DNA from: Candidatus Omnitrophota bacterium
GTDB lineage: Bacteria; Omnitrophota; Gorgyraeia; Ghiorseimicrobiales; Ghiorseimicrobiaceae
Direction: 5' to 3'
Assembly (NCBI GenBank): GCA_030681595.1
Contig: JAUXSB010000061.1
Span: forward strand, 5,392 to 69,391
DNA length: 64,000 nt
Made by a program: the position numbers and the translations under genes. Under the pieces are notes generated by a model. It did no database searches. It saw nothing but the letters and a program-made list of their open reading frames with translations, and was not told where the DNA came from. Below are positions 1,969 through 63,838 of the stretch, in pieces; within the stretch, counting starts at the first letter, position 1, and every line of letters starts with the position of its first letter.

Positions 1969-3000
1969 TTAGAAAGAATCTTTTATCTCAAAATTTACTT
2001 TATAAAACTTCAATTTTATTAGACCATTAAGGGGTTCGACTGCATAAGACAAGCGCTCATCTGGCTCATTCACAATTATTATTCCTCTTACCTTTGTATT
2101 GAAATTCCTCTTAACCCATCCTACATATCTTAAGGTCTGACCGACAACCTTATCATTTTCTCTGCCTTTCTTTAACTCTACCACAACATGATTGCCTTGT
2201 TTATCTTTACACAACAAATCTATCTTTCCAACTTCTCTCGTATCATACTCTTTTCCAACCAAAGAAAATCCCTTTTCTAAAATAAAGATGTTCTCAGTAA
2301 GATAATCTCTTAAATCATTCTCGATTGATATTGAACCATAAGATTTCATGGCTTCTTCTGGACCTTCTTCTCCCTGAGCAAAAGCAAACCACAACAGATT
2401 ATTTACTAAATTATACTTCTCTAAGCCTAAAAGTTCTTTTATGGCTTGAAAAATAACACAATCTCTTAAATAATCTAATGTCCTTTCTAGTAATTCCTCT
2501 TTATCAGTAATATTAAAAATTTGTGTTGCATCTTTTAACGCGGCTTGATCCTGTTCAGAATTGATTTGGATTGCCTCTTTAGTCTGAGAGGTAACAAAGG
2601 GATATTTGCTGGGATCAGAAGAAACCAGAAATTGCGAGAGCGTCTGAATTCCGATTCCTTTGAGTCTAAAGAAATTATTTACTCTGCTTGGGAATGAATC
2701 AGTTCCATGAATTAAGTTTCTTAGTTCTTTGTTGAATTCTTCTATAGAGTTATTTTTATAAAGGAGATTTGTCAGATTTCTGTTTGCAGAGAAATGCTTC
2801 ATATAACCGAATAAGTCATCCAGCTTTTCAGGCGTTAAATCCTTTCCTTGCTTAAAATCCTCGCTATTCAAAATTGCTCTAGTCTGGATTTCCGCCTTCG
2901 CCTCTTCTTCATACCAATTTTTCGCTTCTTCTGAAGATAAGCTATTTTTCCACAATCTCAAATTCTCAATTTGTTCAGGGGTAAATTTAAATTCAGCCAT
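1969..3000 (-). CDS. NucS/DUF4263-like PD-(D/E)xK nuclease-domain protein with an unrecognised ~230-aa N-terminal region
   Basis: The C-terminal segment GKIDLLCKDKQGNHVVVELKKGRENDKVVGQTLRYVGWV matches the NucS/EndoMS-type and DUF4263 (Shedu-like) nuclease core (D..ELK..Q..Y). It is co-directional with hsdR-like, 70 nt apart. Confidence 0.5.
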   Translation of the reverse strand: MAEFKFTPEQIENLRLWKNSLSSEEAKNWYEEEAKAEIQTRAILNSEDFKQGKDLTPEKLDDLFGYMKHFSANRNLTNLLYKNNSIEEFNKELRNLIHGTDSFPSRVNNFFRLKGIGIQTLSQFLVSSDPSKYPFVTSQTKEAIQINSEQDQAALKDATQIFNITDKEELLERTLDYLRDCVIFQAIKELLGLEKYNLVNNLLWFAFAQGEEGPEEAMKSYGSISIENDLRDYLTENIFILEKGFSLVGKEYDTREVGKIDLLCKDKQGNHVVVELKKGRENDKVVGQTLRYVGWVKRNFNTKVRGIIIVNEPDERLSYAVEPLNGLIKLKFYKVNFEIKDSF

Positions 3001-3045
3001 GTTTTTTCCTCTTTTGTTTATGTGCAGATTGCCTTAATAATTTTT

Positions 3046-3186
3046 CTACTTGCCTAATATCCTCATCATAACAGTTCCGCAATCAGGGCATTTGCCTTTC
3101 ATTGCTTTCCTGCCATTTTTCAGGGTTACCTGTTCTTCATCCTTCATTTCTTTCTTTAATTTACATTTCAAACAGTATGCTTGCAT
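3046..3186 (-). CDS. Small zinc-ribbon protein (DUF5679-like), 46 aa, below the ORF-track size cut-off
   Basis: Minus-strand ORF MQAYCLKCKLKKEMKDEEQVTLKNGRKAMKGKCPDCGTVMMRILGK, with an AGGAG RBS 7 nt upstream of the ATG. It has two CxxC pairs. It lies between the NucS-like and Mrr-like genes on the same strand. Confidence 0.5.
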   Translation of the reverse strand: MQAYCLKCKLKKEMKDEEQVTLKNGRKAMKGKCPDCGTVMMRILGK

Positions 3187-3229
3187 TTTTTACTCCTTGC
3201 TAAGATTTAATAAAAATATTTACCTTATA

Positions 3230-4099
3230 TTATCTTTTTCCAAAGAATTTCATAAATAATCTTTCATTAAATATTTGTTTTCCATTCTTTTGAGAAAACC
3301 ATTCCCTAGTGTCTGAAGATTTGATTAAATCTTCAACGATTTGCTCACCAGTTTTTAAAATTATCCATTCTTGTTCAGCATAATTAACAGCGCGGCGAGT
3401 ATAACCAGAGGTCGTCATAAATATACATAAAATAGGACTCTTTACAGAAACAAACCAACTAGGCAACTTCTCAACTAAATTTTGATCGCCACGTTGCACG
3501 CTCAAATAATAGGTATGAAATGATCTTATTAAGATAGGAGAAATTTTACTTGAAAAATGTTTAACTTGACCAATAACCCTTATTTTAAAGTTGTCAGGTA
3601 AAATCCTAGTAGTAAGATACTTCCCAATATCAAAAAGTCCACAAAAATCAATACCTTCCTGATTTTTGGCTGTAAGCTGTATAGGATAGATACCACTTTG
3701 TTCTAATATATACTTACATAAAAACTCAAATTTTTGCCAAGATATTTTGTTGATCGCTTGGATTAATTCTTTTTTTTGTTTTCTTAACTCAGAAATCCGC
3801 AGATCTTCTTTGTGCTTTATGCTATAACTAATAAGCAAGTATTCGGGAAATTCATTAAACTCATAAGCAGGAGAAATCCCCTCTTTTTTACAGTCCTCTA
3901 TCCATTTACATATATAAAATTTGGTTTTTTTAAGAAGGACCTGATTTTCATCTATAAGTTGGAACTCACTTAGATTTGGAAAATGTTTTTTTAATTTATC
4001 ATAACTGTACTTTTCTAAGTCTATCTTATCGAACTTTGAATCTTTAATTTCCTTAAGAATTATCTTAGCGATTTTTGTTATCTCAGAATTAGAAAGCAT
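3230..4099 (-). CDS. Mrr-like (type IV restriction endonuclease catalytic domain) protein
   Basis: The C-terminal half WQKFEFLCKYILEQSGI..QEGIDFCGLFD..RVIGQVKHF fits the Mrr_cat pattern (GxDGGIDG ... QCKRY). Its start abuts the stop of the upstream ParB-like gene (4099/4102). Confidence 0.5.
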   Translation of the reverse strand: MLSNSEITKIAKIILKEIKDSKFDKIDLEKYSYDKLKKHFPNLSEFQLIDENQVLLKKTKFYICKWIEDCKKEGISPAYEFNEFPEYLLISYSIKHKEDLRISELRKQKKELIQAINKISWQKFEFLCKYILEQSGIYPIQLTAKNQEGIDFCGLFDIGKYLTTRILPDNFKIRVIGQVKHFSSKISPILIRSFHTYYLSVQRGDQNLVEKLPSWFVSVKSPILCIFMTTSGYTRRAVNYAEQEWIILKTGEQIVEDLIKSSDTREWFSQKNGKQIFNERLFMKFFGKR

Positions 4100-17344: not shown

Positions 17345-17839
17345 TTAACGATAATTGCAGAAAGAAAGCGGAAGGGGGAAATCTATGCCTCTTAGATGCG
17401 CAATCACAGCTTGTAAATCGTCTTTCTTCGGCGAGGAAACCTTAATTTTTTCTCCTTCAATCTGAGTCTGTACTTTTAACCCCAGATCCTTGATAATTTT
17501 ATTTAACTCTTTAGCCTTTTCTTTGTCAATGCCGCTTGAAATTTCTACCGCCTGCCGTAAAGTCCCTTCAAAAGCTTTCTCGGGTTCTTTAAAATTAAAG
17601 AATTTTACCGACACCCCTCTTTTGGCTAATCTTGTCGCCAGCATATCCCTTAAAGCGCAGAGCTTAAAATCGTCATCTCCAATAAGAGTCAACTTCTTCT
17701 CAACGCGCTCAAATTCAATAGAAGACTTACTACCCTTAAAATCATACCGCTGGGCAAGCTCCTTCTTCGCCTGATTTACGGCATTATCTACTTCCTGCAT
17801 ATCTATTTCTGAGACAATATCAAAAGAAAAATTAGCCAT
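17345..17839 (-). CDS. yajQ: YajQ family nucleotide (c-di-GMP)-binding protein
   Basis: 164 aa starting [27 protein letters not shown], typical of the YajQ/UPF0234 N-terminus. Confidence 0.75.
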
Positions 17840-30975: not shown

Positions 30976-32091
30976 TCAAAATCTTGCCGATATACCTATC
31001 TGATTAATTATATTCTTATATTCAGAAAGAGGATTGTTGCTATCCAGGCTCCAGTAGTCAAACCTATAGGATAGAGTGTAATTTTTTGTAAGTGTGTAGT
31101 ACATAGACAGGCGATAATTATACCTATCATCATATTCTGCCATAAATATAGCTTGGCGCTCTTTATAATTTTTTCTCTCAAAATTAGGGGTAAAAGCAAT
31201 ATAAAGACGGTTGTCTTCCAGGAATAGGCCGGCAATAGTCAGAGAACTTTCAAAGGCATAATAATCATTTAAATCCTGAAGCAGGTCATTAGAGGAATTT
31301 CTGGAGGCTTTGCCTTCTAGGGTAATAATATACCTTCCGATATTACGGCTTAAGCCTGCCTCTAGCGCGTAGCGCTCGTCTTGACGCACAAACTCCTGCT
31401 TTACACCGCTGGGGTTTCTGGCTTTTTTGGCATCGTATTCTTTGACGCTATATTCAAAATTTAAATCGCTGTTCCATTCCGACGAGAAAAATGTTTTTGT
31501 GTTAAGAAAATACTTTAGATTATTATAGCTGGAATCTGAGGAAAGGGGATACCAAAGCGTCTCGTAGCCTATCCCCGGCTCAAGGCGTATTCTGCCTTGG
31601 TAGAAAGGATAAAGCCTCGCCGCTGTGCTTACGCTGCTAAAAAGATAATTGCTGTCAGTAAAATCGGAATATAGCTGGTTAAAAGACAATACGTTGGTGT
31701 TTAAGCCGAACCACCTGGTAAATGTCGGCTTCCAGCTAATCATTGCAAATTGAGTATTAAATATATCCCCTTTGTTAGATGAGTCGTTATTAACATTTGT
31801 CTCGTATCCGCTGGAAGCAGAAGCAAATATTTCAAGCCTAAGAAGGCGCTCCTTCTTTCTCTTTTTGATCTTCAGGAACGCTCTTTGCTTAAGCAGCTCG
31901 ATTAACTCGGATGTGGTCTTAGTTTCGGCTATAGCGCTCTGTTTTATGCTGGAAATCTTATCTTCTAACTGAACAGACCTATTTTCGTTCTCATCTGCGC
32001 AAAGGCCTTTTGGGGTATCTAAAAAAATGGTGCTTAGGCAAAGTATAAAAAAAACAAACTGGGCTAATATTTTTTTTAGGCTTATATTCAA
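30976..32091 (-). CDS. Putative outer-membrane beta-barrel protein
   Basis: Signal peptide, alternating hydrophobic beta-strand pattern, and a C-terminal aromatic residue (…GISARF). Confidence 0.35.
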   Translation of the reverse strand: MNISLKKILAQFVFFILCLSTIFLDTPKGLCADENENRSVQLEDKISSIKQSAIAETKTTSELIELLKQRAFLKIKKRKKERLLRLEIFASASSGYETNVNNDSSNKGDIFNTQFAMISWKPTFTRWFGLNTNVLSFNQLYSDFTDSNYLFSSVSTAARLYPFYQGRIRLEPGIGYETLWYPLSSDSSYNNLKYFLNTKTFFSSEWNSDLNFEYSVKEYDAKKARNPSGVKQEFVRQDERYALEAGLSRNIGRYIITLEGKASRNSSNDLLQDLNDYYAFESSLTIAGLFLEDNRLYIAFTPNFERKNYKERQAIFMAEYDDRYNYRLSMYYTLTKNYTLSYRFDYWSLDSNNPLSEYKNIINQIGISARF

Positions 32092-32463
32092 TTATGCCTC
32101 TTATTATTATTCTTGATAAAATCCTATTTTTCGGGGCTCTAAAGAAATATCCCCCGGCTCTGATTTATTGTAGTAGCTAGAGGTATTTTTGTCAACCCCG
32201 TTAGAAATTCCCTGCCATGGCTAATCTTTCTTTGCAAATAAACTCTCTTGAAGCAGTTTCCAATATCCGGTTTTAACCTTTACAATAGTATATAAGAATT
32301 TTCTAACGGGGTCAATATATATTCGCTATTTGCATTTTTGAAGCTATTTTGCTTAACTCTATACCGAACAATGAGTTATATAAAAAAATGCTTTTGGTAT
32401 ACCTCTTGAAAAAACATGCTTTATAGGGTATACTTATAATGTAAAAGGTAAAATATAACTGTA

Positions 32464-32562
32464 AAGGGCAAACTGCGGGAAACCGCAGGACGCAAAGCCT
32501 TGAGCCTAAAGCTCGCCAAAGAATTATGGCGGCAAAGGCAGTCGGTTGCCGGTTAACGCAAA
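32464..32562 (+). promoter_or_regulatory. c-di-GMP-I (GEMM) riboswitch aptamer
   Basis: AGGGCAAAC-UGCGG-GAAA-CCGCAG-GACGCAAAGCC-UUGAGCCUAAAGCUC matches the GEMM consensus: GGCAAAC, a GNRA-tetraloop P1 hairpin, the invariant GACGCAAAGCC, and GCCUAAA in P2. Confidence 0.65.
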
Positions 32563-32564
32563 GA

Positions 32565-32603
32565 AACCCTCAAACCGACTAATGGCTTTGAGGGTTTTTG
32601 AGT
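32565..32603 (+). terminator. Intrinsic terminator (riboswitch expression platform) directly upstream of the RBS
   Basis: aaccctcaaa-ccgactaatggc-tttgagggtt followed by TTTTG; then an AGGAG RBS and the ATG at 32617. Confidence 0.5.
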
Positions 32604-32616
32604 TTAGGAGTAAGAA

Positions 32617-33077: not shown

Positions 33078-33635
33078 ATGAGAAAAATAATCTTTTTATG
33101 TTCTGTGCTCATGCTAGCAGGGATGTTTTGCTGTTTTAAACAAATTTACGCCTTTGACAAAGCTGAAATGGACCAGACATTAAGAGAAGAGCTTGCCAAG
33201 ATACCGGACCTGGAAACAAAACAAGCTATCCTTGATGAGTATAAAGAAGTTATCAGAGAAAAAATGCCGGAGTTAAATATAGATGAGGCAACCTGTCAAA
33301 GCTGTGAAGAGGATATTAAGGTGCTGGAAAAAGAGCTGTTAGCAAGCTTGGACAAAGGAAATATTGATCCTGGGGAATTCTCCGGAGGGAAAGAAAAATT
33401 GCTTGAGAAACAAAAAGTGTACAAAACTATAACTACAAGCAATACTGTAATGCAAGACCAAACCTCATTGAAGACGAGAACTAGGTATTTCGATGCAGAC
33501 GGCAACCCGGCTTGTGGCTGCGACTCTACCGCCACGGCGGTTACAGATCAAGTTGCGGTAACAACACAGGTACCGGTTACAGTAACCACAACATCGACAG
33601 TTGAAGCCGGTGAAACAGTAGCGGCAGCACAATAA
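33078..33635 (+). CDS. Small secreted protein, paralog B (Thr/Val-rich tail, CGC motif)
   Basis: Start at the ATG at 33078 (GGGGG RBS); the track ORF starts earlier. It carries the same conserved module as paralog A, with about 90 percent nucleotide identity over ~190 nt, then ...PACGCDSTATAVTDQVAVTTQVPVTVTTTST. Confidence 0.55.
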   Translation: MRKIIFLCSVLMLAGMFCCFKQIYAFDKAEMDQTLREELAKIPDLETKQAILDEYKEVIREKMPELNIDEATCQSCEEDIKVLEKELLASLDKGNIDPGEFSGGKEKLLEKQKVYKTITTSNTVMQDQTSLKTRTRYFDADGNPACGCDSTATAVTDQVAVTTQVPVTVTTTSTVEAGETVAAAQ

Positions 33636-33664: not shown

Positions 33665-33697
33665 AAAAACCCGCTTTAGAAAGGCGGGTTTTTTATT
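33665..33697. terminator. Bidirectional rho-independent terminator between the secreted-protein genes and folE
   Basis: aaaaacccgctttagaaaggcgggtttttt. Confidence 0.55.
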
Positions 33698-40526: not shown

Positions 40527-41237
40527 TTACTTGCTACACCTAATCAGCATCCAATCACCATCTTGGACAATATAATCTTTATTTTCTAATTTTAAGAGCC
40601 CGCTGTTACGCGCTTCGTTCAAATGGCCGGACTTTATCAAGTCATCATAATGCACAACTTCGGCGCGGATAAAACCCCGCTGGATATCCGAATGTATCGC
40701 GCCTGCCGCATCCCATGCGGTTTGCCCTTTCTTAAGCGGCCAGGCATGGGAATCTTTATCTCCGACGGTAAAAAATGATATATAGCCGAATTCATTATAA
40801 GCCTTTAATAAAAAATCATCTTTATCCGGCGGATTTTCTTTATCTATTAAATATACCGGCCTTAAGGTAACCAACTGAAAACCGGCGATGATCTTCTTTT
40901 CGGCATCGCTTAACGTCTCGCAAAATAGGAGATCTTCCTTCTCCAGCCTTGCCTTAAATTTATTAAGTAATTCTTTTTCTTTTGCGTCTTCTGCGCGGGA
41001 TAATCTTGTTTCCACAAATTCCAGATCGGATAAAATTAAGTCCACTTTCGCGTTTTTATCCGCGATTATACCGTCTGCTTCGGATAATTTAGCCTGCTCA
41101 TAAATTAATTCCGCCTCTATGTATACCTTTTTGGCAGACTTAAATAAATCCTTCAATTTATCTACGCGCCTGTCAACGACTGTAATCTTGGAGCCGGAAA
41201 AAATATTATCTAAACCGTAAATTCCAAATTTTGCCAT
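40527..41237 (-). CDS. YchF-like protein lacking a functional G domain (coiled-coil plus TGS/DUF933 C-terminus only)
   Basis: The C-terminus FFTVGDKDSHAWPLKKGQTAWDAAGAIHSDIQRGFIRAEVVHYDDL...LENKDYIVQDGD matches the YchF TGS domain. The N-terminal MAKFGIYGLDNIFSGSKIT is a degenerate remnant of the G1 motif (GIVGLPNVGKST). 236 aa against about 360 for YchF. Confidence 0.6.
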   Translation of the reverse strand: MAKFGIYGLDNIFSGSKITVVDRRVDKLKDLFKSAKKVYIEAELIYEQAKLSEADGIIADKNAKVDLILSDLEFVETRLSRAEDAKEKELLNKFKARLEKEDLLFCETLSDAEKKIIAGFQLVTLRPVYLIDKENPPDKDDFLLKAYNEFGYISFFTVGDKDSHAWPLKKGQTAWDAAGAIHSDIQRGFIRAEVVHYDDLIKSGHLNEARNSGLLKLENKDYIVQDGDWMLIRCSK

Positions 41238-41473
41238 GAGATTTACCCCGTTAGAAATAATCCGCCGCGGGCGGATGTCTAGCTAATATAAACTTAAACA
41301 TAATTTATAGCTTCTCTAAAAATCTATTGCCCCAAAATGCTTCTGTTGCTATCTCTAACGGGGTTAATTAAAAGGCGTGCCTTACTTTGTTATTTTAAAC
41401 CGAAAATACGAATTGCGGTTATATTATAAAGGAAAACGGGGTAGGCGTCAACAAATAGTTAAAGGGCAGACGA

Positions 41474-49971: not shown

Positions 49972-50691
49972 CTATTCCGCTGCGCTCTCTAAAGACAGGT
50001 TGCGCTCTACAAATTGCACTACCTGCTCCTGTAATTTTGGACTGATATTATAAAACTCGATTCCCATGCCGGGATATAGTTGAGGCATAAGCTCTTTCTG
50101 GGCAAGCCAGATTACCTTCCCTTCTAACGTAATGTACCCTGGTTTAGGCATAAGCTTTATCTGCAATGTCAGGATATCCCCTAAGGCATAAATTTTTTTG
50201 CAGAGAATATAAGCGCCTATCGCGCTGAGATTATAAACTTTGCCTTCATGAAAAGCGTCTTGAGAATGCCTTAATTTAAACTGTAGCGGAATAAATATAG
50301 GCAGGCGCTTAAAACGGCGGCGCAGTTGCTTCTTTTTTATCCGTTCGATAACTTTGTCTTCCTTGAAACTATGCAGCGCCAATTCTTCGCTTTCATAAAT
50401 CTCAAAAACTTTATCCAGGCAAACTGCCGAAAATATATTCTTTACATGTAAAGGCACATTTATAAACTTCATCCTTCCCTGATGGTTACTCGCGTTTTTA
50501 TAGGCAATAGCCAAAACCGAAAGCCCGGAGTAATCCACAAGATTAACATTGGTAAAATCGCACATTATATCGGTTATTCCGTTTTCCAGGTAATACCCCA
50601 CGGCTTCAATAAAATTTGAAGCGTCAATGTTTATATCGCCGCTTAAGTATAAAATTATTATATTATCTTTCTGGCGCGGTACAATATCCAT
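49972..50691 (-). CDS. STAS (anti-sigma-factor-antagonist-like) domain fused to a C-terminal PilZ domain
   Basis: The N-terminal STAS-like fold is IIILYLSGDINIDASNF…DYSGLSVL. The C-terminal PilZ motifs are RRRFKR (RxxxR) and NLSAIGA (D/NxSxxG). Confidence 0.55.
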   Translation of the reverse strand: MDIVPRQKDNIIILYLSGDINIDASNFIEAVGYYLENGITDIMCDFTNVNLVDYSGLSVLAIAYKNASNHQGRMKFINVPLHVKNIFSAVCLDKVFEIYESEELALHSFKEDKVIERIKKKQLRRRFKRLPIFIPLQFKLRHSQDAFHEGKVYNLSAIGAYILCKKIYALGDILTLQIKLMPKPGYITLEGKVIWLAQKELMPQLYPGMGIEFYNISPKLQEQVVQFVERNLSLESAAE

Positions 50692-52053: not shown

Positions 52054-53547
52054 TTAACCACGGATGAGCCTACGCCAGCGCGCGAACCTTATAAGCGCAA
52101 GCCTATCCTGGCTGCGTATACTTTCAAAACTTAATCCTAACATATAACTGCCTTCTGCCTCGGGCAAACTTTTTATCCAGATAAGTTGCGCTTGAGCGGA
52201 AACCGGCTGTTTACTTCTCGGTAAATGAATCCTTAGGAATACCTTTATCTTACCTATGCCTAATCCGCTTATATCCTGCTTTAAAAAATTAACCCTTAAA
52301 GCTACCCCGCCGTATGAAATATCCTGCGTAAATCCCTGCTGCCAAGGAAAGATAATTTCAGCGCCTAATGCGCTTATTCTATTTATCTGGAGCTCAACCG
52401 GAAGGACTGTATCCATGCGCGCGTACTTCCTTCTTTCTTCTCCTTTATAAAACCTTTCCGCCTGCCGGATACGTTTTTCTATCGGCGGATGAGCATATAA
52501 TAAAAATTCTATTATTCTATTCGGGGAAAAATCGGCTAAATTCTTCTCGCCAAGCTTTTTCATCATTGAGATGAAACTTAAAGGGTCGTTAGTTAATTCC
52601 AAAGCAAAGAGGTCGGCGAAACTCTCCCTTCTGCGGCTATAGCCATTTTGAAAAGGCAGGATAAATAAACTAACGATAGAAAGGCCAAACGCCAAGAGCG
52701 GGAAGGCGGCAATATCATAAATCTCTTTAAAGCCAAAACGCGCTAAGGCTGCCCTTAAAAATACGTCGCAGGCAAAGAAAGAAAAAAATGAAAATATGCT
52801 TCCGGCAATTAAGAGCCTTAACGTATCCTTATATACTTCATGGCCTAATTCGTGCGCAACCACTGAACAAACCTGCTCTGTATCAAATTCGTTTACCAGG
52901 TTATCCGCCAGGAGAATCCTGCGGTTTTTGCCTAAACCGCAGACCATTGCGTTAGATTTCTTGGTTTTCTTAGAAAAATCAATAATGAAAATATTTTTTA
53001 TTTTAGAGCCGGATTTATCTACCAGAGAACGAATCCCGGCTTTAAGATTTTCATCTTGGACCGGTGAAGATTTAAAAAAAAGCGGGATAAGTAAAATCGG
53101 GGTAAGTTTTGCAAAAACTACGCTTAAAAATATCCAGAAAAGCGCGGCATATATCCACCAATTATCCTGCGTTTTTCTTAAAAATAAATACAGTACTTCG
53201 GCGGTAACCAAAAATACCAGCAATTCAATTAACTGTTTTTTAAATGTATCTTTTAACCAGGCAGGAAATTTTTGGCTCGACAGGTTAAACTTATGTTCCA
53301 AGATAAAACCTTCATAAAAGCACAAAGGAAAACTCAATAAAAAAGAGGCGCCGTCAAGGATAAAAACATAAATTGCCACCAGCCAGAAACTATTCCGGGT
53401 AAGCAAGATTATCTTTTCTTTCGCATAAACGGACAGGCCGAAGGACAAAAGAAACAATAGCCCTGCCAAAGATAAAACAATATGCGCTAAAAACAGCCAA
53501 TTTTTAATAAGGTGGTATTTTTTTGCGCGGGCTTTGATTTCCTGCAT
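52054..53547 (-). CDS. M48 (HtpX-like) zinc metalloprotease with a C-terminal PilZ domain
   Basis: Multiple TM helices; HELGHE zinc motif; C-terminal RRKYARMD (RxxxR) plus DISYGGVAL (DxSxGG), the PilZ motifs. Confidence 0.6.
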   Translation of the reverse strand: MQEIKARAKKYHLIKNWLFLAHIVLSLAGLLFLLSFGLSVYAKEKIILLTRNSFWLVAIYVFILDGASFLLSFPLCFYEGFILEHKFNLSSQKFPAWLKDTFKKQLIELLVFLVTAEVLYLFLRKTQDNWWIYAALFWIFLSVVFAKLTPILLIPLFFKSSPVQDENLKAGIRSLVDKSGSKIKNIFIIDFSKKTKKSNAMVCGLGKNRRILLADNLVNEFDTEQVCSVVAHELGHEVYKDTLRLLIAGSIFSFFSFFACDVFLRAALARFGFKEIYDIAAFPLLAFGLSIVSLFILPFQNGYSRRRESFADLFALELTNDPLSFISMMKKLGEKNLADFSPNRIIEFLLYAHPPIEKRIRQAERFYKGEERRKYARMDTVLPVELQINRISALGAEIIFPWQQGFTQDISYGGVALRVNFLKQDISGLGIGKIKVFLRIHLPRSKQPVSAQAQLIWIKSLPEAEGSYMLGLSFESIRSQDRLALIRFARWRRLIRG

Positions 53548-61765: not shown

Positions 61766-63829
61766 TTATTCCTTAAGAAGATTTTTAATATCGGGAAGGG
61801 CCCTGTTTGTTTCTTCTTCGCCTTTTTCAATCAGTGCTTCTATTTTATAAAACTCAAACCAATCCGTGCCTAAGGCAAACGGGCGAATCACAACATCTGC
61901 CATCTGGCAATTTGATTCGGAGACAGCCGACTCTAAAGTTTGGATGCTGTTAACAATCACGTCGAATATATTAGGGAAAAACGTATTCTTCATGCGGACT
62001 TTTAAACGATAGGCTATTTTAGCAAAAAACCCTTTTGCCTTTGCCTGTTTCATTGACGCTTCTAATTGTTTTTGGTTAAACTCGTAATTCTGCAGTATAT
62101 GTTCCGGCCGCGGCAGAGTATCCACCGCGATTATCTTTTTTATCCCCATCTTAACTAATGTAGCTATCGGCACAGGCTCAATAATTCCGCCGTCGACAAG
62201 CAGGTCGCCGTTTACTTTTACAGGCGCAAAAAGCCCCGGAATAGCAATGCTTGCCATCACCGCGTCCACCAAGCTGCCTGAGTCAAAAATGAATTTGCTT
62301 CTCTTGCTGATATTGCATGCCACTATTCTAAGCGGAAGATGGCTGTCCTGAAATGTCTTTTTACCGATAACTTTATGCAAAAATTTCTTTATCCTTTTTC
62401 CTTTGGCAAAGGACAATTTAGGAAAGCAAAAATCCAGTAAAAGATGAAATACTTTCCGGGGGCTGTTAAATTCCATGAGAACTTTCTCCAGCTCGCTGCT
62501 ATTTAAGCCTACCGCCCAAAAAGCCGCGATCAAAGCACCCATACTTGAGCCCACCACTACATCAATCGGAATATTCTCCCGCTCAAGTACCTTGATTACC
62601 CCGACATGCGCTAAACCAAAAGCCGCCCCTCCGCTTAACGCCAGCCCCACACGCACATCGCCAATTTCGCGGACAATCCGGCGCAGGATTTTCTTGTATT
62701 CATCTTCAAGGCGCTGCCGCGCGGCTTTATCTTCATGGCTATCACTCCAAAACATCGGCAAGGCGGCATATATTTTATTTCCCAAAGCACCGGAAGCCTC
62801 TTTAACAGAAAGGCAATCCTGCCCGTTTTTCTCATTAATAACTATCTTGAGCTTATCCTGGGGTAAATTTATCTTCGTGCGTAAATCGTCTATTAAAACC
62901 TTGGTCTTGGCTAAATTCTCAATATGGTTATCCGTGACTATGTTGACAATATCCGACTGCCGCAGCGCCTGATAGACCACTTCATCCGGCTCTGCCAGAA
63001 GATCAACTACAACGTAGTGATATTCTCCGGCAAGCTGGGTTAAAAGCGCACTTAAGTTAGCGGTATATCTTCCGTCGGTATGCTCGTGCGCTACATTTAA
63101 GATATCCAAACCGCTAGGCTCATCTTTTATGATGGCGCTTTGAATAACCTTACTTGTAAAGAAAGGCGTATCCAGCTTTATTACCGGCAAATCACTGTTA
63201 TCTGCTTTACTGATATCCATGGCACGGCATACTTCATTCGCTTTTTTGCTTATATCTAAAAGAAGGACGTTCCGCTCGGTTTCCTTCTTTAAATTTAAGG
63301 CGAGATTAACCGCGTATCTGGTGCGGCCGATGCCCCTTACGGCGCTGAAAATCGAAATGATATTGCTTTCAAAGATCCTTTTTTCCTCGGTGTCTTTTTT
63401 TCTCAGGCGCCGGGATAAAGTCTTGCTTAAATCAATAGCTAAATGCGGAATATGGCTTAAAATTATCTGAAAATCATCTTTCTCAATCTTTAAAATTTTA
63501 GAGTCATTGGCGGCAATGGCATTTACCGAATGAGAATCCCCCGTAAGCAAAGAAATAATCCCGAAGTAATTCCCGCAATGCAGGTATTCCAAGGTTTCAT
63601 TTTTTCGCTTCCCGCTTACAATACGCACCCTGCCCGTGATTACGCAGTAGAAAGCATCCGGAGGGTCAAATTCTTTATAAATTAAATCGTCTTTTTTATA
63701 CTCAACTACTTTGCTTCTCTCGATGATTAAATTTTTTTCAAACAGGTTAAGGTTAGAAAAAATCGGCGCGTAATCAACGATAAACGATTTATCCAGGTCT
63801 TTCTTAAAAATACCAAAAGGCAGATTCAT
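61766..63829 (-). CDS. NTE-like protein: cyclic-nucleotide-binding domain, a degenerate P-loop-like middle region, and a patatin-like phospholipase domain
   Basis: N-terminal cNMP-binding beta-barrel (…GNYFG…RSATV-type region). Patatin motifs GLALSGGAAFG and GSSMG (GxSxG), with an Asp in DGG. The ATG at 63829 is preferred over the track's GTG at 63838. Confidence 0.7.
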   Translation of the reverse strand: MNLPFGIFKKDLDKSFIVDYAPIFSNLNLFEKNLIIERSKVVEYKKDDLIYKEFDPPDAFYCVITGRVRIVSGKRKNETLEYLHCGNYFGIISLLTGDSHSVNAIAANDSKILKIEKDDFQIILSHIPHLAIDLSKTLSRRLRKKDTEEKRIFESNIISIFSAVRGIGRTRYAVNLALNLKKETERNVLLLDISKKANEVCRAMDISKADNSDLPVIKLDTPFFTSKVIQSAIIKDEPSGLDILNVAHEHTDGRYTANLSALLTQLAGEYHYVVVDLLAEPDEVVYQALRQSDIVNIVTDNHIENLAKTKVLIDDLRTKINLPQDKLKIVINEKNGQDCLSVKEASGALGNKIYAALPMFWSDSHEDKAARQRLEDEYKKILRRIVREIGDVRVGLALSGGAAFGLAHVGVIKVLERENIPIDVVVGSSMGALIAAFWAVGLNSSELEKVLMEFNSPRKVFHLLLDFCFPKLSFAKGKRIKKFLHKVIGKKTFQDSHLPLRIVACNISKRSKFIFDSGSLVDAVMASIAIPGLFAPVKVNGDLLVDGGIIEPVPIATLVKMGIKKIIAVDTLPRPEHILQNYEFNQKQLEASMKQAKAKGFFAKIAYRLKVRMKNTFFPNIFDVIVNSIQTLESAVSESNCQMADVVIRPFALGTDWFEFYKIEALIEKGEEETNRALPDIKNLLKE

Positions 63830-63838
63830 AGCTATCAC

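Follow-up and report, generated by a model that had tools for sequence, protein, structure and literature searches.

Vc2 of Vibrio cholerae, the structural reference for the leader reported here, is reported as an ON-type element and is not known to have a comparable terminator platform. In Cd1, the OFF switch in the flgB operon leader of Clostridioides difficile, aptamer and terminator coexist and an antiterminator competes, whereas in the ON switch of pilM the formation of either aptamer or terminator excludes the other (Landgraf et al., PMC9262584). The RNA described here, found in a 64-kb stretch of Omnitrophota DNA (the whole of which is called the window below), carries an aptamer of the same class as Cd1, followed likewise by a separate, coexisting intrinsic terminator, which sets it apart from pilM. 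An antiterminator like that of Cd1 may be built from the 3' strand of the aptamer and the 5' strand of the terminator, and the predicted logic is that of Cd1, transcriptional OFF (PMC9262584). The two differ in host (Bacillota for Cd1) and in the genes regulated, which are flagellar in Cd1 and encode orphan secreted CxxC/CxC proteins here. With Vc2 the window RNA has in common GGGCAAAC, GACGCAAAGCC, CCUAAA and the GAAA tetraloop of P2, as well as the AG bulge and the GGUU-x-CC 3' junction, and equivalents of G20, A47 and C92 are therefore retained. It differs from Vc2 in the longer distal hairpin of P3, and from the consensus in the 3' half of the tetraloop receptor, which reads AAAGG and not uAuGg.

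The GEMM-I class is already known, knowledge of the class itself is unchanged, and the site would be flagged by any Rfam-based annotation pipeline. The novelty is limited to the host, an Omnitrophota metagenome-assembled genome (MAG), an orphan secreted-protein regulon always paired with the riboswitch, and an odd insertion within the aptamer of one ortholog. Omnitrophota are uncultured, and the majority of the proteins specific to their lineage lack annotation; the riboswitch may be the sole functional clue to this secreted-protein family. A conserved riboswitch ahead of an orphan operon yields a testable prediction, namely that the proteins are made at low c-di-GMP, and would place RNA-based sensing of c-di-GMP in Omnitrophota alongside PilZ receptors.

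The Rfam search that an earlier note on this DNA had proposed for its suspected GEMM riboswitch returned a match to RF01051 (c-di-GMP-I/GEMM-I) at 32457-32553 on the plus strand, scoring 70.3 bits, twice the gathering score of 35 (cmscan, E 9.6e-12). The alignment spans model positions 1-87 of 87, i.e. the whole model, and every GEMM motif quoted in that note is present where it had been placed (Table 1). No other riboswitch was found in the 64-kb window (Rfam 15, both strands), the two remaining Rfam matches both being tRNAs. P1, P2 and P3 are reproduced exactly by the unconstrained minimum free energy (MFE) fold of transcripts cut at 32556 or 32566. The hallmark GEMM-I architecture of adjacent P2 (with a GNRA cap) and P3 (with a CUAA internal loop resembling a tetraloop receptor and an AG bulge) is found with high posterior probability, and the distal hairpin of P3 exceeds the consensus length. 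Judged by these features, the RNA is almost certainly a genuine GEMM-I class aptamer.

Table 1. Positions of the features discussed, numbered as in the window, and Rfam scores of the orthologous aptamers
Feature	Position	Strand	Evidence or remarks
-35-like hexamer TTGAAA	32406..32411	+	promoter scan, 10/12 matches, 17-nt spacer
-10-like hexamer TATACT	32429..32434	+	promoter scan; conserved in five loci with upstream sequence
c-di-GMP-I (GEMM-I) aptamer	32456..32555	+	RF01051 score, MFE, ortholog covariation
P1	UAACUG 32456-61 / CGGUUA 32550-55	+	aptamer helix
GGGCAAAC motif	32466-32473	+	sequence read directly
Two closing G-C pairs	32468-69 / 32492-93	+	aptamer
CUGCGG-GAAA-CCGCAG motif	32473-32488	+	sequence read directly
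P2	32473-78 / 32483-88	+	aptamer helix, CUGCGG/CCGCAG, GAAA tetraloop
GACGCAAAGCC motif	32489-32499	+	sequence read directly
P3	32496-32547	+	CCUAAA/AAAGG internal loop, AG bulge 32540-41
GCCUAAA motif	32504-32510	+	sequence read directly
Predicted switching strands	32540..32554	+	AGUCGGUU (AG bulge and P3 basal 3' strand), GGUU (P1 3' strand)
Intrinsic terminator	32564..32599	+	11-bp stem AAACCCUCAAA/UUUGAGGGUUU and 2 inner pairs, then U-tract
Predicted antiterminator partner	32565..32580	+	AACC...AACCGACU, terminator 5' arm and loop
RBS AGGAG	32606..32610	+	6 nt ahead of ATG 32617; sequence read directly
Gene 1, 147 aa	32617..33060	+	'short' form ending PPCGC; ORF list
Gene 2, 185 aa (P0003)	33078..33635	+	paralog, 'long' form; Thr/Val-rich tail past CGC motif
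Bidirectional terminator	33665..33694	both	ends operon and convergent folE
371-aa gene	30976-32091	-	without family match; C-terminal Phe
YajQ/DUF520	17345-17839		ORF domain scan
STAS-PilZ protein	49972-50691	-	ORF domain scan
M48/Ste24-like membrane peptidase with C-terminal PilZ	52054-53547	-	Peptidase_M48_N and Peptidase_M48
L001 aptamer			68.2 bits
L002 aptamer			75.1 bits
L003 aptamer			43.6 bits; 5' end cut, locus sequence begins within aptamer
L004 aptamer			42.2 bits; 77-nt insertion in aptamer
L005 aptamer			66.6 bits

In order to read the ligand from the binding site, Vc2 residue numbers were placed on the model columns by way of the Vc2 sequence. Read in this way, both candidate equivalents of G20 (32467 and 32468) are G in the window. 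The nucleotides ahead of CAAA are GGGC in the window and AGGC in the orthologs, with G in the last two places before the closing C at 6/6 loci. The contexts of A47 and C92 also match the consensus, the letters GGCAAA, GACGCAAA and UGCC all being present, and the GACGCAAAG and GGUUGCC contexts agree with it. Considering the ligand-contact roles of G20, A47 and C92 in Vc2 (PMC6140456, PMC5888326), these binding-site nucleotides point to c-di-GMP as the ligand. GEMM-Ib RNAs (Geobacter Gs1761, pilM) were first annotated as c-di-GMP-I and match the same Rfam model (PMC9262584, PMC6140456), and the window RNA shares their overall fold, raising the possibility that the aptamer is a 3'3'-cGAMP sensor of the GEMM-Ib type, or bispecific, and not specific for c-di-GMP. 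We consider this very unlikely. The cGAMP-sensing members have A at the equivalent of Vc2 G20 (PMC6140456), whereas G occupies both candidate positions in the window RNA and in its five orthologs, adenine being found there in none of them. In addition, the window encodes PilZ-domain proteins, a sign of c-di-GMP signalling.

Orthologous leaders were collected from every locus of the protein family with usable DNA, giving L001, L002, L003, L004 and L005, which with the window make six loci but represent only about four to five lineages of one small clade. Rfam detected c-di-GMP-I in the leader of each family locus examined (6/6). The order of a gene resembling one for an outer-membrane (OM) protein on the minus strand, an intergenic region and the family gene or genes on the plus strand is kept in L001, L002, L004 and L005, and folE (minus strand) comes next after the family genes in L001, L002 and L005. 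From the -10 hexamer through P3, L001 is 100% identical to the window, the protein being only 74% identical; since its aptamer is the same as that of the window, L001 is uninformative for covariation.

P2 reads CUGCGG/CCGCAG in the window, UUCGUC/GACGAA in L002, UUCGCC/GGCGAA in L005 and CUACCU/GGGUAG in L004. When the five distinct ortholog rows were scored on an Rfam-type structure plus P1, 94% of cells were paired. The earlier note had let its proposal stand or fall with covarying P1/P2 pairing in orthologous leaders, and compensatory changes are indeed there, in P1 as well as in P2 and P3: both sides have changed in 10 of the 27 pairs, and in five of six within P2. None of 500 shuffles matched the observed pairing values, and registers slid by 1-3 columns left 13-42% of cells paired with at most two double-changed pairs. 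RNAalifold, run without a supplied structure, recovered P2 and P3 with 8 compensatory pairs. P1 is weak in some orthologs (2-6 bp).

The aptamer of L004 (1322-1485) contains an insertion of ∼77 nt at 1355-1431, for which two stable hairpins are predicted. It lies between the G and the C of the conserved GACG/CAAAG junction and adjoins the CAAAG adenines. The L004 RNA with its insertion keeps the terminator and the antiterminator, and could be an unusual four- or five-way-junction variant of GEMM-I.

Upstream of the aptamer, TTGAAA-17-TATACT is the sole conserved promoter-like site on the plus strand. The window, L001, L002, L004 and L005 share both hexamers and the 17-nt distance between them without a change, while the letters of the spacer vary, a pattern expected of a real promoter. 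Transcription would start near 32441, ∼15 nt before P1, and since the start is placed there by the conserved promoter-like hexamers, a leader of ∼176 nt is implied. What had been described as a 500-nt leader is in fact a 525-nt divergent intergenic region. In the promoter scan the upstream gene has its own divergent promoter, TTGACA-17-TACAAT, at 32195..32167 on the minus strand. The product of this 371-aa gene looks like an outer-membrane protein, and no relatives of it were found among GTDB species genomes. At the other end of the operon, the hairpin at 33665-33694 has a folding energy of -16.0 kcal/mol on the plus strand and -13.4 kcal/mol on the minus strand (z -5.1 and -4.1) in a window with a G+C content of 39.7%.

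The intrinsic terminator that the earlier note had seen after the aptamer, close to the RBS of gene 1, is confirmed: the hairpin at 32562-32599 has an energy of -18.3 kcal/mol (z = -6.5), was equalled by 0 of 200 shuffles and is followed by U5. The terminator platform and its tie to the two secreted-protein genes are likewise real and are conserved in 6/6 loci. Since the terminator core CCCUCAA/UUGAGGGUUUU is invariant at all six loci, its pairing is without covariation support. The stem CCCUCAA/UUGAGGGUUUU (window 32567-32598 and equivalents) is 100% invariant among leaders whose P2 has changed at 5/6 pairs and whose linker is unalignable, and this conservation exceeds what terminator function alone would need.

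The earlier note gave no direction of regulation; the anatomy of the leader points to an OFF switch. Aptamer and terminator are separated by 8 nt without overlap, and both are present in the full-length MFE structure (-54.4 kcal/mol in the window), as they are in the orthologs. Within the aptamer, AGUCGGUU (32540-47) is perfectly complementary to AACCGACU (32573-80), and when transcripts ending ahead of the terminator's 3' arm are folded, GGUU (32551-54) pairs with AACC (32565-68) in the MFE. For such transcripts the two-part helix is the MFE, at -46.6 vs -34.3 kcal/mol for the ligand-free aptamer. Helix A, of 7-8 bp, in which (A)GUCGGUU(G) pairs with (C)AACCGA(CU/U), appears in the truncated-transcript MFE at 6/6 loci. 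Helix B, of 3-4 bp, in which a GG(G) run pairs with CC(C) in the arm of the terminator, likewise occurs at 6/6 loci, its linker positions differing by lineage. The CCGA core of the terminator loop is conserved at all six loci and the rest of the loop varies. AGUCGGUUGCC in the switching strand is invariant at the same six loci, as expected anyway of a segment that belongs to the GEMM-I core.

Truncated-transcript MFE as a stand-alone test for an antiterminator was dropped for its poor specificity in a shuffle control. With the downstream 30-55 nt in shuffled order, pairing of 6 nt or more of the aptamer strand with downstream sequence persisted in 11-48% of cases at the individual loci, and the native antiterminator energies lie only ∼1-1.8 sd below the shuffled ones. 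In addition, helix A reaches no more than the final 2-4 pairs of the stem, so that blocking the terminator would hinge on helix B, the weaker of the two, or on steric or kinetic effects.

We propose that the sigma-70-type promoter at 32406-32434 starts a leader whose first 100 nt would fold as a class I c-di-GMP aptamer. With c-di-GMP bound, P1 and P3 would be locked, and AGUCGGUU and GGUU would be kept within the aptamer; with these strands sequestered, the terminator would form and transcription would end ahead of both secreted-protein genes. At low c-di-GMP, AGUCGGUU and GGUU would instead pair with the emerging AACC...AACCGACU to give the antiterminator, and the polymerase would read through into both genes. 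The OFF assignment, in which high c-di-GMP leads to premature termination, is one we hold with reasonable though not strong confidence, because aptamer and terminator do not overlap, the complementarity is conserved and Cd1 offers a precedent, folding alone being weak. Taken as a whole, an aptamer, a coexisting terminator and antiterminator-based OFF control of the operon make up the probable explanation of the locus.

A genuine aptamer could also act in the opposite sense, as an ON switch in which c-di-GMP binding blocks termination and induces the secreted proteins. The predicted antiterminator only marginally beats the shuffled controls, and in the full-length MFE the terminator forms with or without an enforced aptamer, so that thermodynamics alone leaves the direction unfixed. 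However, an ON switch requires the bound aptamer and the terminator to be mutually exclusive, and here they are spaced apart and coexist in the MFE. Moreover, the sole conserved complementarity to the terminator is that of the strands that ligand binding would sequester. We therefore regard an ON switch as improbable.

Besides OFF control of transcription, a leader with a terminator 6 nt from the RBS, as in the window, might exert its main effect on translation, or might serve as a small RNA that is terminated and stable, e.g. a c-di-GMP sponge, with downstream control secondary. Terminated riboswitch leaders can build up in cells. However, the distance from terminator to RBS ranges from ∼6 to ∼40 nt among the orthologs and the RBS is unpaired in the predicted folds, and the strict 6/6 tie to one gene family favours control in cis. 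We hold such a role to be highly unlikely as the main one and retain OFF control of transcription as the preferred reading.

A scan of metagenome and genome collections with a DNA pattern for the switching strand and terminator gave 15 matches, among which GEMM-I was present in L016 only. L016 and L002 have equal GEMM-I scores and stem from one sequencing run (DRR093005). The other matches were set aside as chance hits, consistent with a rough back-of-envelope expectation.

The protein encoded by gene 1 is 100% identical to Q8L26_08820, annotated at NCBI as hypothetical on a 133.7-kb contig of a Candidatus Omnitrophota MAG. It consists of a signal peptide with an AYA/FDK site, a conserved, CxxC-containing helical domain and a tail rich in Pro. 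A word-indexed search found 4 family members among 5.8 billion proteins and a profile search 9; one more in L002 brings the family to 10. A HMMER scan of 1.84 billion representatives gave 5 matches only, all of them family members. All ten proteins begin with a signal-peptide-like segment ending A/V/I-Y-A/S, followed by F/W/V, and continue with a 65-aa domain whose invariant residues include T-C-x-x-C-E-x-D, a variable linker rich in Pro, Thr or Glu, and an invariant C-x-C motif (CGC, CRC or CDC). In the short forms C-x-C stands at the C-terminus or one residue from it, and in the long forms 13-40 further residues follow; the window, L001 and L002 each encode one short and one long form. From these features the family proteins are probably exported.

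No family match for the downstream proteins was found in Pfam or NCBIfam, and Foldseek found nothing for them in the PDB at E below 1. Their AlphaFold2 models are helical and of low confidence (pLDDT 51 and 58). ComFB of B. subtilis, from a c-di-NMP receptor family, gave a weak profile match around TCQxCEeDi/CxxC (E 0.15) and was rejected: there is no Pfam ComFB match and no structural support, and the proteins are predicted to be exported. In L003 (606-1777) a gene of AhpC/TSA-thioredoxin type and one for a DsbD-type membrane thiol reductase run towards the family gene. These neighbours are suggestive because the family has invariant CxxC and CxC motifs.

As a tentative and rather doubtful suggestion, these small, very rare and previously undescribed proteins, all from a single small clade related to Omnitrophota and with a predicted GEMM-I OFF switch in each recovered leader beside the same OM-like gene, might represent dedicated extracellular effectors that these nanobacteria make at low c-di-GMP. 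If so, the effectors could serve a dispersal, host-seeking or surface-remodelling phase, and might bind metal or form disulfide cross-links.

The earlier note had also drawn support from a YajQ gene and an unusual number of PilZ-domain proteins in the window. YajQ is present; the number of PilZ proteins was overstated, two being found among the 40 window ORFs scanned, where neither a third PilZ nor any GGDEF or EAL domain turned up. The STAS-PilZ protein and the nearby M48-PilZ protein are candidate protein-level effectors of c-di-GMP. Since there are two PilZ proteins, c-di-GMP signalling exists in the organism; as context for the riboswitch, the PilZ and YajQ genes are circumstantial. A 690-aa protein encoded at 61766-63838 (minus strand) combines cyclic-nucleotide-binding, AAA_31 and patatin-like phospholipase domains. 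Near the left end of the window, adjacent ORFs at 1969-4099 (minus strand) carry NucS_C/PDDEXK and Mrr_cat restriction-endonuclease domains and may mark a small island of defence or restriction genes.

Between the two divergent promoters of the riboswitch locus lies a segment of ∼118 nt (32195-32312) whose ends form a perfect 13-nt inverted repeat, ACCCCGTTAGAAA / TTTCTAACGGGGT. The segment is missing from L001 and L005, which are otherwise collinear. In L002, an element with an unrelated interior occupies the same site (3757-3851, after TTTTGTCAA, with TCAA flanks). A second intergenic pair with the same termini and spacing, again with an unrelated interior, is found in the window at 41246-41363. 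It is directly upstream of the start of a 236-aa ORF (40527-41237, minus strand) that corresponds to only the YchF-GTPase_C/TGS C-terminal part of YchF, with no Pfam match to the G domain. These inverted-repeat segments look like a small site-specific mobile or excisable element of which only the ends are conserved.
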